Source: an uncultured Desulfobacterales bacterium (GTDB taxonomy: Bacteria; Desulfobacterota; Dissulfuribacteria; Dissulfuribacterales; QOAL01). From it: a stretch of 27,816 nucleotides of DNA. Numbering within the stretch: the stretch's first letter is position 1; each line of letters starts with the position of its first letter. Of the stretch, positions 11,401 through 27,815 are shown one piece after another. The stretch lies in the NCBI GenBank assembly GCA_964392885.1, contig CAYMRT010000178.1:1-27816 (forward strand), in the 5' to 3' direction. Position numbers and translations under genes: made by a program. Below the pieces are notes generated by a model. It saw nothing but the letters and a program-made list of their open reading frames with translations. It was not told the DNA's origin and ran no database searches.

Positions 11401-11556
11401 GCAGCACTTACTACCATGATGGGAATGATACCACTATTCCAAGATGCCTTTTTTGTATCTATGGCTGTTACAATAGTATTTGGCCTTGGTTTTGCCACCT
11501 TATTAACCTTAATATTTGTACCAGTGCTATATGCCACTTTTTTTAAGATCAAATGA
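8416..11556 (+). CDS. RND efflux permease (AcrB/HAE1-like)
   Basis: 1046 aa; LPRLEDPEF, TM4 ALGMLVDNAIVV, TM10 GMLIKNAIVLID and SRMQPVMMAALTT. Confidence 0.95.
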   Translation: MNIAEFSIKKSVITWTLTFVMIVLGYFAYQGLPRLEDPEFAIKEAVILTPYPGASPKEVQEEVTEVIEKACQEMGQLKRVESYSMRGMSLVHVIIKDKYRKDILPQVWDELRRRMADYEHELPPGAGPITVNDDFGDVYGVYFALVGDGYTFAELKEVAELLQRELLVVQDVKKVELFGLRKEAIYVQMSRTKMAALGITQNDIFNALKAKNLAVDSGRIKFSTQYLAINPTGEFKSEKDFENLFIASKGGKLIFLKDVATVTRGYVDPPQKILRVDGKEGIGIAISTVLGGNAVTMGNAVLKRLDQLKGQIPIGMELKEISMQSKSVTEAVNGFVINLLESVAIVIVVLAIFMGIRSGMIIGFILILTIAATFVVMGYYHITLQRISLGALIIALGMLVDNAIVVVDGMKNKMKQGVDGLQAAKEIVSQNAMPLLAATAVAIMAFASIGGMSNSTGEYCQTLYYVILISLSLSWLTAVTTTPLITKKFVLSKKELADSAGGQEAYGGKFYKIYRTFLSYAIKFRWVTIAIVVGLFALSVYGFGYVKQLFFPASTRPQFMVECFFREGIHILETEKKIEKIEQYLKKQEGVTMVASAIGGGHPRFLLTYSTPVEGANQYSSILVSVKDYRMIDGMIGKIQKDLEDMFPDACINVKKFNLGPATGGKIQLRINGYDPEVLRELAQKAVEILRAEGAKAVRTEWGEKVKVPVPIIAENRAMALGITRPMIAKAIEANYSGATVGVYREGVNLIPIIARAPESERDTIEDLKEIQIYSPVAKRYIPIMQVLNGIETRWENARLSRWHRRQMIKVHADPRDELPAELMARVKPIIEQALGVDLAAYRGKPLQEGEKWTASTIPIKYDDIIPLKGKTGYFIAWGGELEDSSDSQKQLAANIPIYFGMMILIVIFMFNAFRQPLIIWLTVPLALIGVTAGLLLLKQPFGFMALLGLMSLSGMLIKNAIVLIDQIDINIRSGMKGMDAIIESGVSRMQPVMMAALTTMMGMIPLFQDAFFVSMAVTIVFGLGFATLLTLIFVPVLYATFFKIK

Positions 11557-13943
11557 TAAAGCCTAGGAGTTTAAATATGACCGGCCTTTTTCGATTAGTA
11601 TTTATTTTTGTAATTTTTACAGGGCTTACAGTTTCAAAAGGCCTTTGTTTAAAGAGCTGCAATGTAGATATTGGCCCTAAAAAAGTAAGGATAGGGATTC
11701 TAACTGATGGACTGACACCAAAAGATAAATCGTTAGTGCAGCTTTACAAAAAAGAAATAGTAAATGTATTCGAACCTGAAATTCAAGTTGAATTTTGTAA
11801 GAACTGGATAATTTCTGCCAAAGGTACATTAAAAGGAGCAAAAAGAGGGTTAAAGAGGCTGTTAAATTCTAATTGGCCTCAAATGATCCTTACACTTGGC
11901 GTAATCTCGTCAACTGCCGCTATAAAATATAGGAATTTAAATAAACCTGTTATTGCCCCATTTATACCTGCCTTTCTTCTTAAAAAAAACGGCAAGATTC
12001 AAATAAAAAATTTTGCCTATATTGATGCGGTCTATTACTTAGAAAAGGACATAAAGACTTTTAAGAAAATTACACCCTTTAAAAAATTGGCAATAGTTCT
12101 TGATAAAAGGGAATACAATCTAATTAAAAACCTCAATATTGTATCAAAAGAACTTGAAAACAGGCTCAATATCAACATTCATCTTGTTTCTGCAGATTCA
12201 TCAGCCAATCAAGTAATTGATAGTATTCCAAAAGAGGTCGAAGCTGTTTTAATAGGTCCACTTTTTCATATTAATGAGCCAGAAGAAAAAAGACTTTACA
12301 GCCTTTTCATCAAAAAAAGATTACCTGCTTTTGCCCTTTGGAATACTCGGCAAGTTCAACTGGGACTCCTTGCATGCGTTGAAGACAAAGATAAAGATCT
12401 CTCCATTGCAAGAAGAAGTGCTGTTGCCCTGTTAGATATACTTCATGGACAACCGCCAGAAAAACTAAAGATAAAGTTTGTAAGAACTCAGCAGCTAACC
12501 ATTAATATGGATACAGCAAGAAGGCTTAATATTTATCCAAGTCTTTTGATACTTACTGGTGCAAACCTGTTAAACAACAAAGAAGAAGATATAAAAAGAA
12601 GACTAAACATAAAAAAAGCTGTAGAAGAAGCGATTGAAGCCAATCTTAGGCTTCAGGCAGCACGTGTCTCAGTAAGCGTTGAAAAATATAGAGTAAAAGA
12701 GGCCATGTCTGCTCTTCTTCCAAGAGTTGACATTGAAACAGGCTATAGGGCAGTGGATCAAGACAGAGCCAAGTCTGCCTCTGGCCTTAGTCCAGAAAGG
12801 GCATGGACAGGGTCTGCCAAAGGTTCTGTGCTTCTTTATTCAGAAAAAAAATGGGCACAATTTACAGCTCAAAAGCATCTTGAGCTTGCCCAGCAAATGA
12901 GGCAGCAAATAGTAAAACTTGACATCACTTATGACGCATCTGTAGCCTATTTAAATGTTTTAAGAGCAAGAACTATTGAGCGCATATATAAGGAAAATCT
13001 TGATCTTACAAAGGCAAATCTTGAACGGGCTCAAATAAAGGTTGCTACCGGAGCGGCAGGCCCTGATGAAGTTTATAGATGGGAATCTAAATTTGCATAC
13101 GACAGAAGATCAGTTCTTTATAAAGAATCTGAAACCATGGATGCCATGCAGGCACTTAATAGGATCCTTCACAGACCAATTGATGAGCCATTTATTCCAG
13201 AAGAAGCTAGCCTTAAAGACCCATTATTCATAATGGGAGATAAATTCTATTTCAAACTAATGGAGAATCCCATTTATTTTAGAAAATTTAAGGCTTTTGC
13301 AACTAAAGAAGCAATGAAATTCAGACCAGAGCTTCATGCAATATCTTATGCCATTAAGGCAAAGGAGAGATTACGGACTGCTGCAAAACGTGAAATTTGG
13401 CTTCCTGACTTCACCATCGACTGGAAAGTGGACCAATATCTTGCAGAAGATGGACACGGCAGAAGAGAAGGAACTTTATTTGATGACACCGACTGGAGCA
13501 TTGGTGTGTTTGCTAGAATTCCACTTTTTGAAGGAGGTAAAACTGTTGCAAAGGCCGGGCGGCTTCAAGAAGAGGTTTCAAAACTTGAGATAGAAAAAAA
13601 TGCACTCATAGAAGCAATTACCCAACATGTGCTTTCAGCAATCAACAAAACAAGGGCATCTTATCCATCAATAATTCTTACCAAAGATGCAGAAGAAGCT
13701 GCCAGAAAAAATCTTGAGTTAATAACTGATTCCTACATTCATGGGATAAAAAATATTATAGATCTTTTAGATGCCCAAAACCAATATTTAAATGCTAGAC
13801 TCGATTCTGCAAATGCTGTTTATAACTTTTTAATTGATTTTATGGGGGTTCAACGGGCAATGGGTGAATTCTTTATCTTTATGCCAGATGATATGCGTAT
13901 CCAATGGATGAATAGAATAAAAAATGAGTTAGGCTTAAATTAG
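11553..13943 (+). CDS. TolC-family outer-membrane factor with N-terminal ABC substrate-binding-like domain
   Basis: 796 aa. From about residue 351: LNIKKAVEEAIEAN, ALLPRV, YLNVLRA, WLPDF, IPLFEGG, IIDLLDAQ (OEP repeats). Residues ~40-330 end in LTINMDTARRLNI, typical of the ABC_sub_bind family. Confidence 0.85.
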   Translation: MIKPRSLNMTGLFRLVFIFVIFTGLTVSKGLCLKSCNVDIGPKKVRIGILTDGLTPKDKSLVQLYKKEIVNVFEPEIQVEFCKNWIISAKGTLKGAKRGLKRLLNSNWPQMILTLGVISSTAAIKYRNLNKPVIAPFIPAFLLKKNGKIQIKNFAYIDAVYYLEKDIKTFKKITPFKKLAIVLDKREYNLIKNLNIVSKELENRLNINIHLVSADSSANQVIDSIPKEVEAVLIGPLFHINEPEEKRLYSLFIKKRLPAFALWNTRQVQLGLLACVEDKDKDLSIARRSAVALLDILHGQPPEKLKIKFVRTQQLTINMDTARRLNIYPSLLILTGANLLNNKEEDIKRRLNIKKAVEEAIEANLRLQAARVSVSVEKYRVKEAMSALLPRVDIETGYRAVDQDRAKSASGLSPERAWTGSAKGSVLLYSEKKWAQFTAQKHLELAQQMRQQIVKLDITYDASVAYLNVLRARTIERIYKENLDLTKANLERAQIKVATGAAGPDEVYRWESKFAYDRRSVLYKESETMDAMQALNRILHRPIDEPFIPEEASLKDPLFIMGDKFYFKLMENPIYFRKFKAFATKEAMKFRPELHAISYAIKAKERLRTAAKREIWLPDFTIDWKVDQYLAEDGHGRREGTLFDDTDWSIGVFARIPLFEGGKTVAKAGRLQEEVSKLEIEKNALIEAITQHVLSAINKTRASYPSIILTKDAEEAARKNLELITDSYIHGIKNIIDLLDAQNQYLNARLDSANAVYNFLIDFMGVQRAMGEFFIFMPDDMRIQWMNRIKNELGLN

Positions 13944-15890: not shown

Positions 15891-16563
15891 AATCCCTATA
15901 AGATATAGCTTTCACAATTTACTTATATGGCTTTTGATTTATCTTGTTGCCTCCCCATTTCTTCAGGCTGGAAGCCATGCATCTTTACTACTCACAGCAT
16001 TTATCTCTTTGGTCTTCTTCTTTGCAGTATGGACAATTCAAAAATATCAAGGATACTTTAAGATATCATTAATATTACTTCTTTTAACATTAGGTCTATT
16101 GTGGTCATCAACCTTTAAAATAATATCATTTCCGCCACTTATGTATTCTATCATATCATTATGCTATTTACTGGTTCTAGTATTTACATTTGGAAAATTT
16201 GTATTTAGTGCAAAAGTAGTTGACTCAAGTCTTATTTGCGCAGCCCTTTGTCTTTATCTTTTAATTGGCATCATTTGGGGGATTTGTTATGAGGCGCTTG
16301 AAATTATTTATCCTGGCTCTTTTCAAGGGGCAGCGATTAATTCATCCCTTTCATCTGTTGAGATTAGACAAAAATTTACCTATTTTAGTTTTATTACATT
16401 AACGACCTTAGGTTATGGAGATATTACTCCCAAATCCCCTCAGGCCTTTGCCCTTTGCCAGACAGAGGCTATTATAGGCCAATTTTTTATGGCTGTGCTA
16501 GTTGCGCGCCTTGTAGGCATCCAAGTAAGTCAACAGTTCTCAAATAAAGACCATGAAAGATAA
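15880..16563 (+). CDS. Potassium channel family protein (Ion_trans_2 pore domain)
   Basis: YFSFITLTTLGYGDITP selectivity filter preceded by several TM helices. Confidence 0.88.
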   Translation: MRIKIPIRYSFHNLLIWLLIYLVASPFLQAGSHASLLLTAFISLVFFFAVWTIQKYQGYFKISLILLLLTLGLLWSSTFKIISFPPLMYSIISLCYLLVLVFTFGKFVFSAKVVDSSLICAALCLYLLIGIIWGICYEALEIIYPGSFQGAAINSSLSSVEIRQKFTYFSFITLTTLGYGDITPKSPQAFALCQTEAIIGQFFMAVLVARLVGIQVSQQFSNKDHER

Positions 16564-17194
16564 CATTACAAAAGACTTACTTCTCTGTCCTAACTGTGAT
16601 CTTGCAATAAAACCGCAACCTGTTAAACCTGGCAATGTACTTATATGTCCCAGATGCGCTACTCCAATACTAGCACCAGTAAACAACAGCATTGAAAAAA
16701 CACTAGCCTTAAGCCTTACAGGACTGATTTTATTTATACCAGCTATCTTTATGCCTCTTTTAACATTCGATGTAATTGGCCTTGAATCATCAGGAAGCAT
16801 CTTTGATAGTGCCATAGCACTTTTATCCTCTGGATTCTATTTCACAGGATTAGCAGTGCTTCTTACAAGCATCATTATTCCAATAACTAAGCTTTCCATA
16901 CTCTTTGTGGTATCCTTTCAGCTTTATGTAAATAGTGCTACAAAAATTACTGCCCTTTTATTTAGATTTTATAAACACATAGATGAATGGGGAATGCTAG
17001 AAGTCTATATGATAGGCATCTTAGTCACCATTATAAAAATGTTACATTTAGCAAAAATTCATTATGATATAGGCTTTTTTTGCTTTATTGCACTACTGAT
17101 TGCTACAATCAGTTCATCTTTATTTTTAGATTCAAACCACTTCTGGGAAAAAATCCATGAGCAAAGAACTAAAGGCAGAAAGCTACAAAGCTAA
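16553..17194 (+). CDS. pqiA: Paraquat-inducible protein A (PqiA-like), first copy/half
   Basis: CPNC...CPRC, LILFIPA...P, WGMLEVYMIGILVTIIKM. Confidence 0.88.
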   Translation: MKDNITKDLLLCPNCDLAIKPQPVKPGNVLICPRCATPILAPVNNSIEKTLALSLTGLILFIPAIFMPLLTFDVIGLESSGSIFDSAIALLSSGFYFTGLAVLLTSIIIPITKLSILFVVSFQLYVNSATKITALLFRFYKHIDEWGMLEVYMIGILVTIIKMLHLAKIHYDIGFFCFIALLIATISSSLFLDSNHFWEKIHEQRTKGRKLQS

Positions 17195-17807
17195 AAGCAA
17201 TTACCCTAAAACAGGAAAAGAGTTGGGCCTTGCACTTTGTCATGACTGCCATCTGGTAATTGATATGTCTAATCAGAAAAAACAGCATGCCATATGCCCT
17301 AGATGTTTTGCATCTGTGCATTTCAGAAAGCCAAACAGCATCACACATACTTGGGCGCTTCTTATAACTTCATTTCTTCTGCTTTTCCCAGCAAATCTGC
17401 TTCCTATAATGAAAGTAGAATTTATGGGCTCAACAGATGCATCAACTATAATGGATGGGATTATTTATTTTTTTAAAGAAGGCTCCTATGGCATTGGATT
17501 TGTTATTCTTGTAGCAAGCATCCTTGTACCACTTTTTAAGATAATAGGAATTTGCCTGATACTTTTATCTCTTCACTTTAAATGGCAAACCTGGCTAAAG
17601 CACAAAACACTTATGTTTAGATTTATAAAATTTATTGGACGCTGGTCAATGTTAGACATATTTGTAATTGCTCTTCTTACTGCCTTGGTAAATTTTGGTT
17701 TTTTTACAACTATTCAAGCAGCACCTGCAGCACCATTTTTCTGTATGGTGGTCATTACTACAATGCTAGCAGCAGAAAGATTTGATACGAGATTAATCTG
17801 GGATTAG
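17157..17807 (+). CDS. pqiA: Paraquat-inducible protein A (PqiA-like), second copy/half
   Basis: CHDC...CPRC, RKPNSI..TWALL, PANLLPIM, IGRWSMLDIFV and FDTRLIWD. Confidence 0.9.
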   Translation: MSKELKAESYKAKSNYPKTGKELGLALCHDCHLVIDMSNQKKQHAICPRCFASVHFRKPNSITHTWALLITSFLLLFPANLLPIMKVEFMGSTDASTIMDGIIYFFKEGSYGIGFVILVASILVPLFKIIGICLILLSLHFKWQTWLKHKTLMFRFIKFIGRWSMLDIFVIALLTALVNFGFFTTIQAAPAAPFFCMVVITTMLAAERFDTRLIWD

Positions 17808-17911
17808 CTAGATACAGCTCATATAACCAATGAGGCAATGATTATGCAATTAAAACAGCTAACCCCTAGTCATTTCTGGCATATATAGCGTAAAAAACCA
17901 AATTTTGGCAT

Positions 17912-17940
17912 TTGACAAAAATAGGCCTCTGTTCTATCTT
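17912..17940 (+). promoter_or_regulatory. Sigma70-type promoter with no downstream co-oriented gene
   Basis: TTGACA (17912-17917), exactly 17 nt, TATCTT (17935-17940). Palindrome CCAAA-T-TTTGG (17898-17908) just upstream. Confidence 0.7.
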
Positions 17941-17946
17941 GTTAGC

Positions 17947-18049
17947 CATTGTTGGGGCATTTACCCCTGCTGGTCCCTCTGTACCATCTCCAACAAAGAC
18001 GACCAACATACCCACCTCCATCCTTCTTTAAACCAGCAGGGGTTTTTTT
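17947..18049 (+). ncRNA. Candidate ~100-nt small RNA with C-rich loop and intrinsic terminator
   Basis: Promoter above; perfect 12-bp stem ACCCCTGCTGGT (17963-17974) / ACCAGCAGGGGT (18032-18043) followed by a T7 run (18043-18049); 57-nt loop with 24 C and 3 G. The 5' end is estimated. Confidence 0.55.
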
Positions 18050-20450
18050 ATTCTTTTTGCTTGTCTTTGTCTTCTTCTCTGGCAAGCTTTGATAAGTACT
18101 TTATTTCCTTATCAACAAGATAAAAAAGCGTACCTTCTGGATAATTACCTTTTTCGTCAATCTCGCCTGCCTTAAGCCCTGTTAATATTTCAATACCTTC
18201 TTCAACGGTTTCTATTGACCAGATATGAAATCTTTCTTTTTTTACAGCCTCTATTACCTCATCTTTTAAGGTAAGATTCCTTACATTTGCACTTGGGATT
18301 ATCACACCTTGGGTACCTGTCAACCCTTTTGCATGACAAAGATCAAAAAAGCCTTCTATCTTTTCTGTAACGCCTCCAACAGGCAAAATTTCCCCTTTTT
18401 GACTGACAGCTCCAGTGCAAGCAATATCTTGTCTTAAAGGTATTTTTGACAATGCAGATAAAAGCGCAAAAAGCTCTGCACTTGAAGCCGAATCTCCATC
18501 TATCATGCCATAGCTTTGCTCAAAACATATGGTAGCAGTTAAACTTAAGGGCTTGTTGTGAGCAAATCTAGAACGCAAATATCCTGCAAGTATCATCACT
18601 CCTTTGGTATGAATCTTCCCGCTTAATTCCGCCTCTCTTTCAATATTTATAACACCTTCTTTACCTAAACTGATATTTACTGTTATTCGAGAGGGCTTAC
18701 CAAAGGTTGTATCTCCCAAATCATAAACTGCAAGACCATTTATTTGGCCCACTGCCTTTCCTTCTGTTTTTATCTTGATTATCTCTTTAACCAAAAGCTC
18801 TTGGAGATGCTCTTGATAAAGAGCTGAACGATATTTTCTCTCTGATATTGCTTTTTGTACATGAAGATTGTTTATAAATGGATCTTTTTGTTTCTCTGCC
18901 CAAAAATTTGCTTCAATCATCAAATCTTCAAGGTCTGTTATCTTTAAAGAAAGCTTTTCCTTTGAGTGAGATAATTCTGTGGCGTATTCAATTAACCTCG
19001 CAACACCAGAACGATGAATGTCTTTGAGTCTGTTCTTTTCCCGCAAATTGGAAATAGCCCTTATAAGCTCCTTTTGTCTTTGAGCATTATTGTCTGTTTC
19101 AGTGTCTAGATGTGACTTTATCTTAAAAAGCTCTTTAAAATCCTCATCATAATTGTAAAGAAGCTGATATATGATTGGATCTCCCATTAAAATTATCTTT
19201 ACATCTAAATCAACCGGCTCTGGTTTGAGTGTCTTTGTAGTAAAGAGACCAAGTTGTTCACCAAGATCTTCTATTTCGAGCTTTTTAGTCCTAAGGGCCC
19301 TTTTTAACGCCTCATAAGCAAAAGGTTTTTTTAAAAGATCAACTGCCTTTAACAACAAAAAACCGCCATTTGCCCTATGAAGGGCACCTGCTTTTATCAT
19401 GGTAAAGTCTGTAAAGAGTGCCCCAAACTGTGCCTGTCGCTCTATTACTCCAAAAAGATTGGTATAGCTTGGATTTGCCTCAAAAACAAACGGCCTGCCT
19501 TTAGCCTTTGAATTGTCAACAAGCACATTAACCTCGTATCTTGCAAAACTAGGAGTCATGCCCGGCATAGGAAAAGGGAGCCCTGGCATAGGGGCCTTTT
19601 GAGGCAAAAAGTCTTTAAAATGAATTACAACATCTTCAAGCACATCATCAAAATACTCTTTAAGCTTTGGATATCTTTCATATTTTCGTTTTAAAGGATC
19701 AATGAGGATCTGAGCTGTCTGACGGGCAACTTGCCTATCCAGCTCTTTAAGCTTTTGCCTTACCTCTTGCTCAAGCTGATGGACCTGACGCATGGTGGCG
19801 CCCATCTCTCTATGTAGTTCTTCGCTTTTGCGCTTTAATTCATCTTGCTCTTCCTTTGTAAGGCGATTTATTTCTTCAGGAGTTAAAGGGCTGCCATCTT
19901 CTTTGGCTGGAATTACCATCATTCCTGTAGGATCAGCCTGAAGTAGAAAATTTTTGGCTCTAACCTTTTTATCTAACTCTTCAAAAGCCTCAGTGCGCCT
20001 TTTATTAAATTCTCTAATAACCTCTTCCTTAGATACAAGATAGGTCTCACCTTCAAAGCTTTTAGGCATATGAAGCTTTAAGTTATCGACAAATTCCATC
20101 ATGTCTTTTTTCAGTTGAATGCCAAAGCCCTTCTCTAACTGCACTGCACGAGGTACATCAGGATTTTTAAAATTATAAATGTAACAGAGATCTCTTGGGG
20201 TGTGATCTTCACTTTCAACTAATTCCTCAAGCTTTGAAATAGCTAAATCTAGAGCACCTGCTTCTTGAAGACCTGCTACATAGCAGTTAAATCCTGCATT
20301 TTTAATCCCAAGTCCAACGTCTAGTGCCCTTTCAGCTCGTTCCTGTGCAAAAACACTTGAATGACTTGGGGCATATTCACTGACAAATTCAAAATCTAAT
20401 TCCTCAGAATCTACAAACAATCTCAACTTATCTGCTGTTAGCTTCTCCAT
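18048..20450 (-). CDS. Lon-family (LonC-like) protease with degenerate AAA module
   Basis: GQINGLAV, PSRIT, IEREAELSG.IH.KG, FEQSYG.IDGDSAS (catalytic Ser), PVGGVTEKIEGF (catalytic Lys), GVIIP..N. AGGAAGGT RBS. Confidence 0.9.
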   Translation of the reverse strand: MEKLTADKLRLFVDSEELDFEFVSEYAPSHSSVFAQERAERALDVGLGIKNAGFNCYVAGLQEAGALDLAISKLEELVESEDHTPRDLCYIYNFKNPDVPRAVQLEKGFGIQLKKDMMEFVDNLKLHMPKSFEGETYLVSKEEVIREFNKRRTEAFEELDKKVRAKNFLLQADPTGMMVIPAKEDGSPLTPEEINRLTKEEQDELKRKSEELHREMGATMRQVHQLEQEVRQKLKELDRQVARQTAQILIDPLKRKYERYPKLKEYFDDVLEDVVIHFKDFLPQKAPMPGLPFPMPGMTPSFARYEVNVLVDNSKAKGRPFVFEANPSYTNLFGVIERQAQFGALFTDFTMIKAGALHRANGGFLLLKAVDLLKKPFAYEALKRALRTKKLEIEDLGEQLGLFTTKTLKPEPVDLDVKIILMGDPIIYQLLYNYDEDFKELFKIKSHLDTETDNNAQRQKELIRAISNLREKNRLKDIHRSGVARLIEYATELSHSKEKLSLKITDLEDLMIEANFWAEKQKDPFINNLHVQKAISERKYRSALYQEHLQELLVKEIIKIKTEGKAVGQINGLAVYDLGDTTFGKPSRITVNISLGKEGVINIEREAELSGKIHTKGVMILAGYLRSRFAHNKPLSLTATICFEQSYGMIDGDSASSAELFALLSALSKIPLRQDIACTGAVSQKGEILPVGGVTEKIEGFFDLCHAKGLTGTQGVIIPSANVRNLTLKDEVIEAVKKERFHIWSIETVEEGIEILTGLKAGEIDEKGNYPEGTLFYLVDKEIKYLSKLAREEDKDKQKE

Positions 20451-23408: not shown

Positions 23409-24776
23409 TCAAAAACGGCTAATCTTTTCAAAAAACTCTTGAAGATCTCTTTTCAAAAAATTTTGTGCCTTTTTAAGATTCTTTTTATGTCTTAGCCATA
23501 CCTGTTGCCTTGCATTCTTCTCTATAAGCTCAGATACCTTCCCCTTTACTCTATGCCAGAGATCTCTTTCAAACGCATCTTCAAGCTTTACAAGATCGTC
23601 GGGATTTTCACTAAAATTTTTCACTAAATTTGGGAAAGTGATCTTTTGAAAATATACTGAACCCATGCCTACAACAAGCAGTAACCAAATAATCGGCCAC
23701 AAAAGGGTGTCTATAGAAAAATTCCCAGAAACAGTTGAAACAACAAGAGGATCTGAAGGGTAACCTAAAAACAAGTTCATAACTAAGTCGCCCAAAATAA
23801 AGGCCAAAAGTGCAGAAATTCCAACTGCCTTACCAAAGCCCTTTAATTTCTTTGTAAAAATGGATTTAAAACCATCCATAGCCTTTATAATAAGAGACAG
23901 CTCTCTAACAGACTTATCCACTTCTTGTAACATATGAAAAAGACGCATTCTTGGTGCATCTAAAAAAGCCTTTTTAAGTTCTTCTCTTTCCTTATCCCAT
24001 ATCTCAAATCCTTGCGGGATCTTCCTGCCAGGTATCTTGGCATACGTTAAATAAATTCTTGGGATGTCCTTTCTGCCTGTCATTTGAGACAGATTCCAAC
24101 AAAGCGTTCCATATGCCCTAACCAAATCCTCAAGGTTAGCACACTCATCTACCCTATTCATTACAAAGGCAACCCTGTCTTCCCCTGTTGTAGCAGGAAG
24201 GGTAATTCTTATCACCTGATATGTCTCTTTAATAGTCCCGGCCTTATGCGGATCAAACATTAGCACAATTAAGTCTGCAATCTTTGCAAGCTCCCCTATT
24301 ACTCCTAGGTAATCATATCCTCTATCTTTTTCCGTAACAGAATCTAGCATGCCAGGGGTATCGATAATGGCTATGTCAGCCAGATGTTCTACATCTACCT
24401 TTTTCATAACAAGATGAGCTAGAAGTTTTTCTCCAAACCTGCGCAAGCATCCAAAAGGAAGCCTTTCATCGCTAACTATAGAATTGCCAGTCAAGTCTCC
24501 TGGTGCTTCTCCTGCTTCCGGTGCGGTAATGATGGTAAAACTGTCATCTGTAGGTGCCTGACCAGTTCGCTGAATATCCATTCCTAAAAATTCATTTATA
24601 AACGTTGATTTACCAGAAGAATAATTTCCAATAACAAGAACAATCGGTTTCCATTTTAATGGGGTAAGGAGTTCTTCTATGCTACAAAAATAACTGTCAT
24701 AGATTTTACCCAACCTTTCAGGCAAAATACGCTCGATTTCCCTTTTTAACTCAACTGCACTTATATTACCTGCCAT
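23409..24776 (-). CDS. Dynamin-superfamily, EHD/sarcalumenin-like NTPase with C-terminal transmembrane hairpin
   Basis: G1 GNYSSGKST, PTDDSF, G3 IIDTPG, RGYD, FDPHK, G4 NRVD, LVRAYGTLCWNL; two hydrophobic segments at about 23650-23830. AAGGAG RBS. Confidence 0.85.
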   Translation of the reverse strand: MAGNISAVELKREIERILPERLGKIYDSYFCSIEELLTPLKWKPIVLVIGNYSSGKSTFINEFLGMDIQRTGQAPTDDSFTIITAPEAGEAPGDLTGNSIVSDERLPFGCLRRFGEKLLAHLVMKKVDVEHLADIAIIDTPGMLDSVTEKDRGYDYLGVIGELAKIADLIVLMFDPHKAGTIKETYQVIRITLPATTGEDRVAFVMNRVDECANLEDLVRAYGTLCWNLSQMTGRKDIPRIYLTYAKIPGRKIPQGFEIWDKEREELKKAFLDAPRMRLFHMLQEVDKSVRELSLIIKAMDGFKSIFTKKLKGFGKAVGISALLAFILGDLVMNLFLGYPSDPLVVSTVSGNFSIDTLLWPIIWLLLVVGMGSVYFQKITFPNLVKNFSENPDDLVKLEDAFERDLWHRVKGKVSELIEKNARQQVWLRHKKNLKKAQNFLKRDLQEFFEKISRF

Positions 24777-24807
24777 TTTGGCTACTCCTTGGTATTTAGC
24801 TTTTAGG

Positions 24808-24835
24808 ATTCTATAAACATAAAGATAACTTGCAA
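24808..24835 (-). promoter_or_regulatory. Possible sigma70 promoter for the dynamin gene
   Basis: Minus strand TTGCAA, 16-nt spacer, TAGAAT. AT-rich context weakens the call. Confidence 0.35.
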
Positions 24836-24900
24836 TGAATTTTTTTTAAATAGAATAAAATACAAAGAAGAGATTTTTGAAAGGGAAACTTAAAGAATTA

Positions 24901-25857
24901 TTACAGAACTATGGTGCGATCTCGTCCCTGATTTTTAGCCATATAAAGGGCTTTATCCACCCGTTCAAGGGCATGTTCTATATCTTCCTTAGGCTCAACT
25001 TGAGTTACTCCCAATGAAATTGTTAATTGGATATAATTACCTGAAGGATCTATTACAAACTTATAGTTTTTAACCTTTCTTCTTAAACGTTCTGCTAATT
25101 GGAAAGCCTCTTCTTTAATAGTATGGGGAGCCATAATTATAAATTCTTCTCCACCATATCTATAAATTGAATCAGAATCTCTAATCATTTCCTTCCATAT
25201 GTTAGCCAAATTTTGGAGGATTTTATCTCCTGTCTGATGGCCATATGTGTCATTGATCTTTTTAAAATGATCAATATCGCACATTATAAGTGAAAGGGGA
25301 TAATTATATCTTCTAATCTTTGAAAGTTCTTTTTTTAAATCTGCTTCAAGGGCCCGCCTGTTAAAAAGATTTGTAAGAGGATCAATTCTTAATCTACTTC
25401 TCAATTCATCTATTATCTTAGCTTGCTCATTGATCTTTTCTTCTGTTTCTTTAGTCTTTGCCTCAAGGGTCTTATTTATTACTAATAGTTTGGCTATATC
25501 TTCATAAAAGATATTTTCTTTATCTTTTTCATCTAAAGATTGTAGGGAATTTTTCATATCGCTTACTTGCTCTTTAGTTACCTGGACAAAATCTTCAACT
25601 GTATCCTTCACGCCCTCTAAAATATTTTCTGTATCATCCATAAATTTTTGAAGCAGTTTGTAGGTAGTTTCATCAAAATTGCTTTTTTGTCCAATTAATA
25701 AAGTAAGATTTTGGGATTTTGCCACATGCCAAAATTCCTTAGAATATACGTCAGGCCAAGGTAAATTGCCCTTGTTGACCAAGTTTTTTAAAGCTGTTCT
25801 TGCAGTATGAGCCACTTGCTCTGCCAGCTTTTTTTTGATACTTGTTTCGCTTTCCAT
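24901..25857 (-). CDS. Diguanylate cyclase (GGDEF domain) with N-terminal helical/coiled-coil region
   Basis: DPLTNLFNRR, DIDHFKKINDTYGH..GD, RDSD (RxxD I-site) five residues before GGEEF, ADxALY-like VDKALY.AK..GR. Confidence 0.95.
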   Translation of the reverse strand: MESETSIKKKLAEQVAHTARTALKNLVNKGNLPWPDVYSKEFWHVAKSQNLTLLIGQKSNFDETTYKLLQKFMDDTENILEGVKDTVEDFVQVTKEQVSDMKNSLQSLDEKDKENIFYEDIAKLLVINKTLEAKTKETEEKINEQAKIIDELRSRLRIDPLTNLFNRRALEADLKKELSKIRRYNYPLSLIMCDIDHFKKINDTYGHQTGDKILQNLANIWKEMIRDSDSIYRYGGEEFIIMAPHTIKEEAFQLAERLRRKVKNYKFVIDPSGNYIQLTISLGVTQVEPKEDIEHALERVDKALYMAKNQGRDRTIVL

Positions 25858-25923
25858 TTAATAATCCACAAACAAAGTAGTAGACACTTATCTATACTTT
25901 TATATCGAAAAATTAACCAATTC

Positions 25924-25950
25924 AATAAAAAAGGGGGCATTTGCCCCCTT
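25924..25950 (-). terminator. Rho-independent terminator after the barrel gene
   Basis: Minus strand AAGGGGGC-AAAT-GCCCCC followed by TTTTTTATT. Confidence 0.85.
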
Positions 25951-25976
25951 CATCTAAGCTAGATTATAGCCATGGG

Positions 25977-27815
25977 CTAGAAGCTATAGCTTATATACCC
26001 CATAAACAATGAGGTGGTTGAACCCTGATCGCCATATACATAAGGCTCATTGTCATCAAAATAATAAAGGGTGTAATTTAAGGTTAAGCCTAAACCATTA
26101 GACATCCTATAGGTTGTTCCAATATTAAAGTCAAGCTGTTTGTACTCAAGATCTGAGTACTTATCGATAGAATTTAGATAAGCCACATCGTAAAGATGAG
26201 GCATATCTGGATTTACTGCTGAGACATCAAGATCTAACTTGGCATCGCCGGTTGGATACATGCTGTCAAAATTCAACTCGCTAATATTTCCACGGCCAAT
26301 AGTAAATGCCAAATCAGTTGTAAAGCTCCAATTTGGTAAAATAAAATAGGAGATGTTTGCGTTGATGGTATGAGCCTCTGTCCTATAATCCATATCGGTA
26401 TGTTCGGAACCAAACTGGTCCGTTGTAATGAAGTTGCCTCACCCATCGTAGATGGCTATACAATACTGTGACTCGTATTTGTCATACATATATGTATAGC
26501 CAGCACTTACAACTAAGTCTTTAATAGGCGTAAGAGTTCCACTAAAACCAGCAACTATAAAGTCTTGCTGCCAATCGCGTCCATCCACATCATCATTTTG
26601 AGCATATTTATATTTTATGAAAAAGCTAGTATTTAACATGTGGAGTGGATGCCAATGGCTCTTGAGTTGAATCTCATGAACTTGACTCGGTAAATTTGAA
26701 CGAGCAGCAGTTCTTGCCCCATAAATTGCGGGTTCATAAGCTCTTTCAGTTACATAAAGGCCTGCAGGGAGTCCTGCATATTCACCATAACTACCATCTG
26801 GAGTACACTCAGCCTCATAAAGCATGTAAGGATCATCTATATACTCAAATTTATAATCAAAGTCGAATTTGAGATTATGATTTACACGCCAATCTGTATT
26901 AAGGCTAAATATGTGCTCTTTGGTTGATTCGGTAACATTGTGATGTTTATAGTTATCTCTCTTTTCACGCTTAAACTCATATCCAGCAGCAAGCTTTAGC
27001 CCTCTCATTATACGCCATGTTATATCTGCACCAATTTCATAGGTATTGCTGTCATAACCAGAGTAGCGAGTTTCTTCTTCTTCAAAATAAGACCAACCGC
27101 TCTTGGAAATATAACCCTCAGACAGGGTTACTCCGCCACCAGGGGCTCCTGAAGGATTATTTCTTACATTCTTTTTAATATCGACATTGTCATTGTCTAG
27201 CTCTTGATATTTTCCAAAAATATTAATGGAAATCGCCTTAGTAATTCTGCTATGAAAGCGGGCATTAAAAATGCTGCTGTCAAGGTCAAGCTCTTCTCCA
27301 TATTTGCCAGCAAGTATGTCATAAGGATCATCAACAGATTTATTAGTAGCCTCAGAAAACACATAGTTGGCTACGAAGGTATTGTTGGCGTTAATATCCC
27401 AACGGAACTTACCCTTATAAGTATCTTTAGTTGAGTCAGGGGTGCGGCTATAAGGCAACTCACCAGTAGTGCGATCGTACTGGAGCCTGTTTAAAAACAA
27501 CCCTTTTCCTTTTAAACCGTTATAGACGTTTGTTAAGTCTTCATTGTCTGCTTCAAATTCCCTGTGCATATAGGCAAATTCAAAGGCCATTGTGCCAACT
27601 CTTAAACTCAGCTTTGGAGAAAGATCATTGGTCTTTTCATTAATTTCCTGGGCCCTAGACACTATATGACATGCCAAACACTTGCTGTTTGTCATTGCCT
27701 GCTTATGGCCCTTTCTCTGCTCATATCTATGATTAAAGCTAAATTTAAGTTCGGGAATTTGTGGAATATTTACCTTAAACTCCTGATTCAAAAGGGATCT
27801 TTTTATCTCAAACAT
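25977..27815 (-). CDS. MtrB/PioB-like outer-membrane beta-barrel with CxxCH motif and in-frame UGA (putative selenocysteine); GSU2204-family-like; probably 5'-truncated
   Basis: ORF 26439..27815 ends in TGA (26441-26439). The same frame stays open for 15 codons (GNFITTDQFGSEHTD) into ORF 25977..26393, which ends in the barrel beta-signal GYISYSF. CLACH at 27666-27680. The family name is recalled from NCBIfam, not searched. Confidence 0.8.
26405..26422 (-). promoter_or_regulatory. Putative bacterial SECIS element
   Basis: mRNA reads UGA, 16 nt, then CGGA-CCA-GUU-UGG-U-UCCG: a stem with a bulged U and an apical loop starting with G, 23 nt from the UGA. Confidence 0.7.

Follow-up and report, generated by a model that had tools for sequence, protein, structure and literature searches.

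A stretch of DNA from an uncultured Desulfobacterales bacterium (assembly GCA_964392885.1, contig CAYMRT010000178.1; 27,816 nucleotides (nt), the whole of which is called the window below) was found to carry, at positions 17947–18049 of the + strand, a unit predicted to encode a trans-acting small RNA (sRNA) of about 100 nt that belongs to a new family. It is very probable that this unit is a real sRNA gene. Because it has its own promoter, hairpin and U tail, lies in at least four different genomic contexts, varies in its stem as expected for a + strand RNA, shows no sign of a second copy per genome and matches no Rfam family, it is best described as an independent gene for a putative trans-acting sRNA. 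The family is apparently undescribed: its kind, the C-rich regulatory sRNA, is known, its architecture is unusual and its sequence constraint is extraordinary.

The unit in the window

The gap at 17808–18047 separates the 3' ends of a PqiA-family gene (+ strand) and a Lon-like protease gene (− strand). The parts of the unit, along with the two neighbouring genes, are as follows.

17912–17917, + strand: −35 box TTGACA, an exact consensus hexamer (promoter scan)
17935–17940, + strand: −10 box TATCTT, after a 17-nt spacer
17947–17962, + strand: predicted 5' leader, its start at ~17947 being placed from the position of the −10 box
17963–17974, + strand: 5' stem arm, ACCCCTGCTGGT in DNA and ACCCCUGCUGGU in RNA (inverted-repeat search)
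17975–18031, + strand: C-rich, G-poor loop of 57 nt, predicted unpaired (composition and fold prediction)
17984–17994, + strand: first copy, CCAUCUCCAAC, of an imperfect 11-nt repeat, CCAYCUCCAWC (read from the sequence)
18012–18022, + strand: second copy of the repeat, CCACCUCCAUC, containing CACCUCC (18013–18019)
18032–18043, + strand: 3' stem arm, ACCAGCAGGGGT in DNA and ACCAGCAGGGGU in RNA (inverted-repeat search)
18043–18049, + strand: U7 tract (T7 in DNA), the terminator tail directly after the stem and a possible Hfq-binding 3' end
17157–17807, + strand: upstream neighbour outside the unit, a PqiA-family gene (domain annotation)
18048–20450, − strand: convergent neighbour, a Lon-like protease gene of the LonB/LonC type, whose stop codon overlaps the U tract

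The promoter boxes (TTGACA-17-TATCTT) match the consensus at 10 of 12 positions, and the two 12-nt stem arms, 57 nt apart, are 100% complementary. The loop contains 17 A, 24 C, 3 G and 13 T, which is the strongest C-over-G skew among all 57-nt windows of the 27.8 kb. CACCTCC occurs only once in the window (18013–18019) and has, as RNA, the same letters as the core of the 16S anti-Shine-Dalgarno sequence. An initial annotation, made from the window sequence alone, had described this promoter, stem, loop composition, T7 tract and CACCTCC, and all of them were found at the positions given there. It had also noted that no + strand gene follows the unit, which holds, as the gene that ends at 18048 is the Lon-like gene of the − strand.

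Taken alone, the window sequence is weak evidence for the unit and is not statistically compelling. Promoter-like sites are not enriched in the window (6 found against 7.4 expected from shuffles), the fold energy of the unit is unexceptional (z = −1.65), and the hairpin was not listed by a consensus terminator scan, since its loop of 57 nt exceeds the maximum of 8 nt allowed in the scan. The unit is more than a chance arrangement because it is conserved in 27 distinct loci.

Identification of relatives

As the first search set, 80 loci encoding relatives of the window's Lon-like protein were fetched. When these were searched with a pattern of the stem arms only, blind to the loop, 8 of the 80 matched, and in all 8 the loop was identical to that of the window while the flanks were unrelated. 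A motif search gave three further loci. Scanning metagenome contigs for a 21-mer yielded 15 loci, among them 8 new lineages and the window's own contig. Five loci (L097, L098, L100, L105 and L107) were obtained by synteny only, without any use of the element's sequence, through MltA homologues 41–48% identical to the MltA of the mltA-linked group described below. Each locus that kept the order Mdh-MltA / DUF4390-kinase-regulator carried the element in the gap (5 loci), with a loop identical to the common core save for one deleted U in L100 and L105. MltA loci lacking DUF4390 (L099, L101, L102 and L106) had no element. Finally, the six-frame translation of the element was used as query against proteins, so as to profit from open reading frames (ORFs) called spuriously over it, and this added L103 and L104.

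The 27 distinct loci come from metagenome-assembled genomes (MAGs) and metagenomes of Thermodesulfobacteriota, and the carriers, heat-loving relatives of sulfate reducers, are a clade of uncultured, mostly hydrothermal members of that phylum. No copy was found in viral contigs, and no diverged copies were found near lon of more distant relatives.

Conservation of the loop and the stem

The most striking property of the unit, invisible from the window alone, is the near-invariance of its whole loop and stem. A 55-nt core, UCCCUCUGUACCAUCUCCAACAAAGACGACCAACAUACCCACCUCCAUCCUUCUU, is identical in 23 of the 27 loci. In the window it comprises U17974, the inner base of the stem, and the first 54 nt of the loop (17975–18028). 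The four deviating loci differ little: L100 and L105 are without the first U, L087 and L094 have one substitution each, and L104 has three. The motif CACCUCC (18013–18019) is invariant in 27/27 loci, a count limited by the fact that the 15 metagenome matches had been selected with a 21-mer that includes it. The A/C-rich middle of the loop, AACAAAGACGACCAACAUA, is as invariant as the C-rich motifs except in L104, whose three changes fall outside both C-rich repeats. The substitution in L094 is a U to C change in the first repeat copy that turns CCAUCUCCAAC into CCACCUCCAAC and creates a second CACCUCC heptamer, CCACCUCC; it is the sole substitution in the first 11-mer repeat outside L087. Nearly all differences within the element lie in the junction, i.e. 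the last 2–7 nt of the loop before the 3' arm, which vary in sequence and length between loci, and the loop as a whole measures 54–60 nt.

The mean pairwise identity of the element was 97%, whereas that of its flanks was 33% (60 nt upstream) and 36% (40 nt downstream). The proteins encoded nearby are far more diverged. Mdh beside the mltA-linked copies is 75–77% identical between three divergent lineages (90% for L097 vs L098), and these Mdh proteins are as diverged from one another as from that of Dissulfurimicrobium, whose locus is without the element. The MltA neighbours are only 41–48% identical despite a near-identical element. Loop and stem are essentially frozen in a family whose orthologous neighbour proteins stand at 41–77% identity and in which the DNA between genes has been randomised. 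Fast evolution is the rule for bacterial sRNAs, with conservation limited to short seed regions, and a comparable constraint is normally limited to the cores of rRNA, tRNA and housekeeping RNAs. Such a constraint implies an important interaction in these poorly studied, largely uncultured, thermophilic sulfur-cycling bacteria.

When L103 (150–235) was aligned with L104 (3040–3125), the two were identical in the 3' half of the sRNA and downstream, differed at four positions in the 5' half, and were unrelated upstream. This looks like a recombination breakpoint within the sRNA gene, the 5' half possibly stemming from a variant-loop lineage.

Promoter, strand and stem

An exact TTGACA, a spacer of 16–18 nt and a −10-like hexamer (3–5 of 6 matches) precede the element in 21/21 aligned lineages. 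TTGACA is also present in L097, L098 and L100, and L103 has TTGACT. The leader of the aligned lineages is 17–37 nt long and lineage-specific in sequence and length; the one conserved feature is the UU directly ahead of the stem. Nearly all loci have a U-rich tail after the stem, though the flanks are otherwise unrelated; in L090 it is weak. It is clear from these alignments that promoter, stem and C-rich motifs are all conserved among the relatives, which was the test that the initial annotation had set for its orphan promoter-terminator unit; the + strand sRNA gene it proposed is borne out as a conserved unit in 27 loci and at least four contexts. Two of its subsidiary ideas were not supported. 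A conformational switch, in which 17949–17957 would pair either with the loop or with CCCC in the stem, is not conserved, as it involves the leader, which differs in every lineage. The palindrome CCAAATTTTGG (17898–17908), taken for a possible regulator site, is present in the window, whereas the other lineages do not keep it ahead of their −35 box; L001 shares TTTTGGCA only.

In the alignment of 21 lineages, 99.6% of the cells of the 12 stem pairs were paired. At the outer position 14 lineages have A-U, 4 have U-A, and G.U and U.G occur in 1 each; L100 and L105 have G-C. At two inner positions U-A has given way to U.G, in 4 lineages at one and in 6 at the other, the six being due to an A to G change in the 3' arm. 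One pair is compensatory, and the covariation score of the stem was reached by 0 of 500 column shuffles. The helix is therefore conserved as a helix, pairing having been retained through wobble and compensatory changes. The RNA corresponds to the + strand of the window, because an RNA of the opposite strand would have C-A mismatches in place of the U.G variants. Nine of the 12 stem pairs are invariant, as are the inner 10 nt of the 5' arm; the sequences of the stem arms thus seem to be constrained beyond pairing alone.

Predicted structure

Fold prediction at 37 and 60 °C gave a fully formed stem and a mean probability of being unpaired of ~0.8 (0.75–0.86) for the loop, in line with the earlier view of a largely single-stranded C-rich loop. 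This probability was 0.93–0.96 for CCCACCUCCAUCC and 0.74–0.96 for UCCCUCU, CCAUCUCC and CACCUCC at both temperatures. A weak inner helix, AAAGA/UCUUU, is possible; in the mltA-linked group it has 7 bp (ACAAAGA/UCUUUGU), with the junction UGUG. The variable junction and leader argue against a compact tertiary fold and favour a linear read-out of the loop.

Genomic contexts and copy number

The element was found in the following contexts.

Context 1, 14 loci (named: L001–L007, L009, L010, L013, L014, L081, L092): secreted DUF4140/DUF4139 gene downstream on the same strand, this gene being convergent with lon where lon is present
Context 2, the window and L095: U tract abutting the lon stop codon, DUF4139 gene absent
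Context 3, 10 loci (L084, L085, L087, L089, L090, L097, L098, L100, L105, L107): the element converges on mltA and diverges from an operon of DUF4390, a histidine kinase and a sigma-54 response regulator
Context 4, L094, L103 and L104: other neighbours (an ANTAR regulator; a DnaJ-like protein; a hybrid kinase)

In the first context the DUF4139 gene starts ~10–45 nt past the U tract where its start codon was read. It is in most relatives that this secreted DUF4140/DUF4139 gene stands between the sRNA and lon (L001–L014, ~1.5–1.9 kb past the lon stop). In L095 an RsmB/F gene lies directly upstream of the sRNA.

In all 10 loci where an operon of a DUF4390 (PlrP-like) protein, an NtrY-like kinase and a sigma-54 regulator lies by mltA, the sRNA divergently abuts the DUF4390 gene, and its promoter lies inside or beside the start of that gene. 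Recent genetic work has identified DUF4390 proteins (PlrP) as a third component of NtrYX-type two-component systems, with genes that often lie beside rsmB (PMC13001219). Together with the RsmB/F gene of L095, this is a lead on regulation and not evidence. A sigma-54 promoter for the sRNA, suggested by the neighbouring sigma-54 regulator, was looked for and rejected, there being no GG-N10-GC at the proper spacing.

The window has one copy, the scan of whole metagenomes gave one match per lineage, and no second copy was seen in any genome or contig examined. In one MAG the element is present at mltA (L105) and absent at lon (L017). The element is probably single-copy, old, vertically inherited and occasionally relocated, judging from these distributions, and it is not a repeat.

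Known families, coding potential and other identities

No match to Rfam 15 was obtained at gathering thresholds across the whole window, which agrees with the initial annotation's statement that it recognised no matching family; the collection covers RsaE/RoxS, sX13, aSD-motif sRNAs, 6S, SRP, tmRNA, RNase P and 5S, among others. At E ≤ 10, the region 17700–18200 gave five chance-level matches to eukaryotic, viral and unrelated families, far below their gathering scores. No tRNA or tmRNA was detected in the window or in 15 loci, and the core motif appeared in no paper with relevant context.

A protein product of the + strand was rejected: the invariant part has no AUG, GUG or UUG, junction indels of 1–5 nt shift all frames, L001 has an in-frame stop just upstream, and no synonymous-type changes occur among the loci. 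A leader peptide containing PPP, the translation of which would melt the terminator, was likewise rejected on account of in-frame stops or the lack of a start in L001 and of the frame-shifting junction indels. A template RNA of the DRT2 or retron type was rejected, since no reverse transcriptase is nearby in any context and the loop length varies (54–60 nt) without being kept to a multiple of 3.

Complementarity to rRNA was examined with the Escherichia coli molecules as a proxy. The best duplexes with 16S, 23S and 5S rRNA (−35.3, −38.8 and −29.8 kcal/mol) were no better than those of shuffled loops, 51 of 60 shuffles for 16S and 41 of 60 for 23S being as good or better. Visual resemblances to 16S positions 1180–1200 and to 5S were dropped after this comparison. 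As for a long target in trans, the 21-mer scan of both strands of the metagenomes found sRNA loci only, and blastn-short over ~0.7 Mb of related loci gave matches of ≤13 nt only.

Proposed pairing with ribosome-binding regions

In its sequence, the element has what a trans-acting sRNA gene should have, namely its own promoter and predicted terminator, whatever its neighbours. The mechanism that we favour, tentatively and with slightly less than even confidence, is base-pairing of the loop with G-rich ribosome-binding regions. The stem would end transcription and hold the loop open as a single-stranded platform, from which the C-rich motifs UCCCUCU, CCAUCUCC and CCCACCUCCAUCCUUCUU could pair with the G-rich ribosome-binding regions of several mRNAs. 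Such pairing would block translation initiation, in the manner of RoxS/RsaE, sX13 and the alpha-proteobacterial sRNAs with anti-Shine-Dalgarno (aSD) motifs. Overlapping constraints from many targets, possibly along with a bound protein, would then freeze the loop sequence. In the predicted structure the unpaired motifs are complementary to GGAGG-type Shine-Dalgarno (SD) sites, and the complement of CCCACCUCCAUCCUUCUU, in the 3' third of the loop, reads as an ideal start site: a purine tract, GGAGGUG, 4 nt and AUG.

Several observations weigh against this mechanism. When the loop was paired with the 26 predicted start regions of the window, the mean energy was −11.8 kcal/mol, compared with −11.9 ± 0.8 kcal/mol for shuffled loops, a test that covered ~1% of one genome. 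Pairing with the adjacent Lon start region was also no better than that of shuffles (20 loci). SD complementarity explains only ~20–25 of the 55 invariant bases, and the A/C-rich middle is equally fixed. The stem arms, too, keep their sequence and not just their pairing, which goes beyond what an sRNA acting by simple base-pairing requires. Lastly, a loop of 57 nt is far outside the range of canonical intrinsic terminators, so that termination is something we infer. Near-total invariance suggests a protein or ribosome partner also.

Should the sRNA be a global SD-occluding regulator, the mechanism would be extended to a new phylum and to a new architecture, in which a terminator hairpin serves as the display loop. 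The family is small and sharply defined, and can be found with a covariance model built for it.

Comparison with known regulatory RNAs

RoxS/RsaE of Firmicutes are short sRNAs that direct unpaired C-rich motifs of the UCCC/CCCC type against the G-rich SD regions of many targets. The RNA of the window resembles them in its intrinsic terminator-type end and in its several unpaired C-rich motifs complementary to SD regions. It differs in that it belongs to another phylum and has no Rfam match at E ≤ 10, its motifs share one loop of 55–57 nt, which the terminator stem itself closes, and are not spread over small hairpin loops and linkers, and every base is conserved in its family.

The alpha-proteobacterial sRNAs with aSD motifs (CcsR, 'cuckoo', alpha-r14) carry loops with CCUCCUCCC atop two to three small hairpins and are often multicopy. 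Like them and sX13 of Xanthomonas, the present RNA has unpaired anti-SD-like C-rich sequences, which in those cases are proposed to occlude ribosome-binding sites; unlike them, it forms one giant loop, showed no second copy in the genomes and contigs examined, carries CACCUCC, CCAUCUCC and UCCCUCU, and is matched by no covariance model.

In the Qrr sRNAs of Vibrionaceae, a 32-nt stretch that pairs with several targets is for that reason absolutely conserved, and the genes lie beside luxO, which encodes a sigma-54 regulator. They show that a multi-target sRNA can have a long single-stranded segment that does not vary, and a further likeness is that in 10 lineages the sRNA of the window type divergently adjoins an operon for a sigma-54-type response regulator. 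However, the promoter of the present sRNA is sigma-70-like, its invariant segment is 55 nt long and spans a deeper divergence, and the sequences show no resemblance.

Rho utilisation (rut) sites, like the Rho-antagonising RNA element of the Salmonella mgtCBR leader, are parts of longer transcripts on which they act in cis, and their sequences are little conserved. The loop is rut-like in composition only, having 24 C and 3 G in 57 mostly unpaired nt, and shares with these elements ~60 nt of C-rich, G-poor RNA that is predicted to be unstructured; the present RNA, in contrast, is stand-alone and sequence-invariant. With canonical intrinsic terminators it shares a 12-bp GC-rich stem followed by U7, but its loop has 57 nt as against 3–8 nt, and the hairpin is the body of the RNA and not an appendage. 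Termination at the U tract is thus predicted from the stem and tail.

A possible binding platform or housekeeping-type RNA

In the main rival explanation, the RNA, instead of or besides being a base-pairing regulator, could be a protein- or ribosome-binding platform whose loop is read base by base, thereby sequestering or regulating a machine. We hold this to be rather unlikely, though it would explain the invariance better than pairing with ribosome-binding regions does. Candidate partners are Rho, ribosomal protein S1, the 30S subunit, Era, a cold-shock or KH-domain protein and Hfq. The primary site of Rho prefers 60–80 nt of C-rich, G-poor, unstructured RNA, which the composition of the loop fits, and the KH domain of Era binds the CACCUCC end of 16S rRNA. 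The invariance of loop and stem (23/27 identical) is at the level of core ribonucleoproteins, where Mdh stands at ~75% and MltA at 41–48%, and covariation between the stem arms is restricted. Strong constitutive expression is suggested by the perfect conservation of the consensus −35 box, and the variability of the leader and of the 2–7-nt junction would favour linear recognition of the loop over a compact fold. With its two copies, the 11-nt repeat CCAYCUCCAWC inside the loop could accommodate a dimer. On the other hand, no protein gene co-localises consistently with the element across all four contexts, and Rho and S1 have little sequence specificity, so that they alone would not explain invariance base by base. 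If there is a protein or ribosome partner, the RNA may stand for a new class of abundant regulatory RNAs.

A lineage-specific housekeeping-type RNA, which would be expressed strongly and constitutively, act as an essentially invariant single-stranded platform of 55 nt and serve as stoichiometric partner, decoy or regulator of a core machine, is somewhat less probable again. The candidate machines are 30S, S1 or Era, through CACCUCC, and Rho, through the rut-like composition. In that case every base would be fixed as tightly as in the conserved cores of rRNA.

Cis-acting, − strand and DNA-level explanations

The element might be a cis-acting 5' leader or attenuator of the DUF4140/DUF4139 gene, with a hairpin that terminates transcription under regulation and, in the window, a relic copy that outlived the lost gene. 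A secreted DUF4140/DUF4139 gene does follow on the same strand in 14 of the 27 loci. In the window and L095, however, the U tract abuts the convergent lon stop, in 10 loci it points at the 3' end of mltA, and L094, L103 and L104 present yet other contexts. The element is equally invariant where the DUF4139 gene is missing and has therefore been selected independently of that gene. Neither does it behave as a riboswitch or attenuator leader: a co-oriented gene follows in those 14 loci only, the loop has no aptamer-like structure, the leader is variable, and there is no conserved alternative pairing. As the sole function, action in cis is improbable and largely refuted; it would be at most an added role in some lineages.

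We also considered a product of the − strand, a small protein beginning MEVGMLVVFVGDGTEGPAGV with a GGAGGUG-N4-AUG start, to which the + strand RNA would be the antisense partner in the style of a type I toxin-antitoxin system. The complement of the loop does read AAGAAGGAUGGAGGUGGGUAUG followed by an open frame (51 amino acids (aa) in the window), and gene callers annotated such ORFs in two metagenomes. Yet past 20 invariant codons a lineage-specific tail ends after 1–35 codons, synonymous changes are zero, that side has no conserved promoter and a flank only ~36% identical, and the U.G variants of the stem become C-A mismatches on that strand. The peptide is not hydrophobic, as type I toxins are, and a conserved small hydrophobic ORF of the opposite strand was not found. 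This product is contradicted by the data and very unlikely.

Equally contradicted and just as unlikely is a DNA-level element, i.e. a miniature inverted-repeat transposable element or a repetitive extragenic palindrome-like repeat with 12-bp terminal inverted repeats, or else a protein-binding site, the identity of which would reflect recent spread: against the perfect 12-bp inverted repeats and the identical copies with unrelated flanks in different contexts stand the single copy in the 27.8-kb window, the one match per lineage in whole metagenomes, the MAG in which mltA, but not lon, is accompanied by the element, a syntenic site shared across MltA proteins 41–48% identical (which marks the element as old and vertically inherited), a sigma-70-type promoter at variable distance for each copy with a U tract for nearly all, and the absence of evident target-site duplications in the sequences read.

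Other features of the window

Upstream of the sRNA gene, at 16553–17807, two neighbouring ORFs of the PqiA family, each of half size and with one PqiA domain (213 and 216 aa), overlap by 38 nt. They could be a split pqiA or two separate genes. No gene of the MCE/PqiB type follows them; the sRNA gene comes next. The Lon-like protease (18048–20450) has AAA_32, LonB lid, LonC helical and Lon_C domains and is not of the classical LonA type; its gene follows ruvC-ruvA-ruvB and a yebC homologue on the − strand.

An ORF of 796 aa at 11553–13943 combines an N-terminal domain like the substrate-binding proteins of ABC transporters with a C-terminal TolC-like OEP domain. It lies downstream of genes of the HlyD and AcrB types, and such a fusion is unusual for the outer-membrane component of a resistance-nodulation-division pump. 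At the right end of the window (23409–27815) were found genes for a dynamin-family GTPase, a GGDEF diguanylate cyclase and an MtrB/PioB-like outer-membrane beta-barrel protein.

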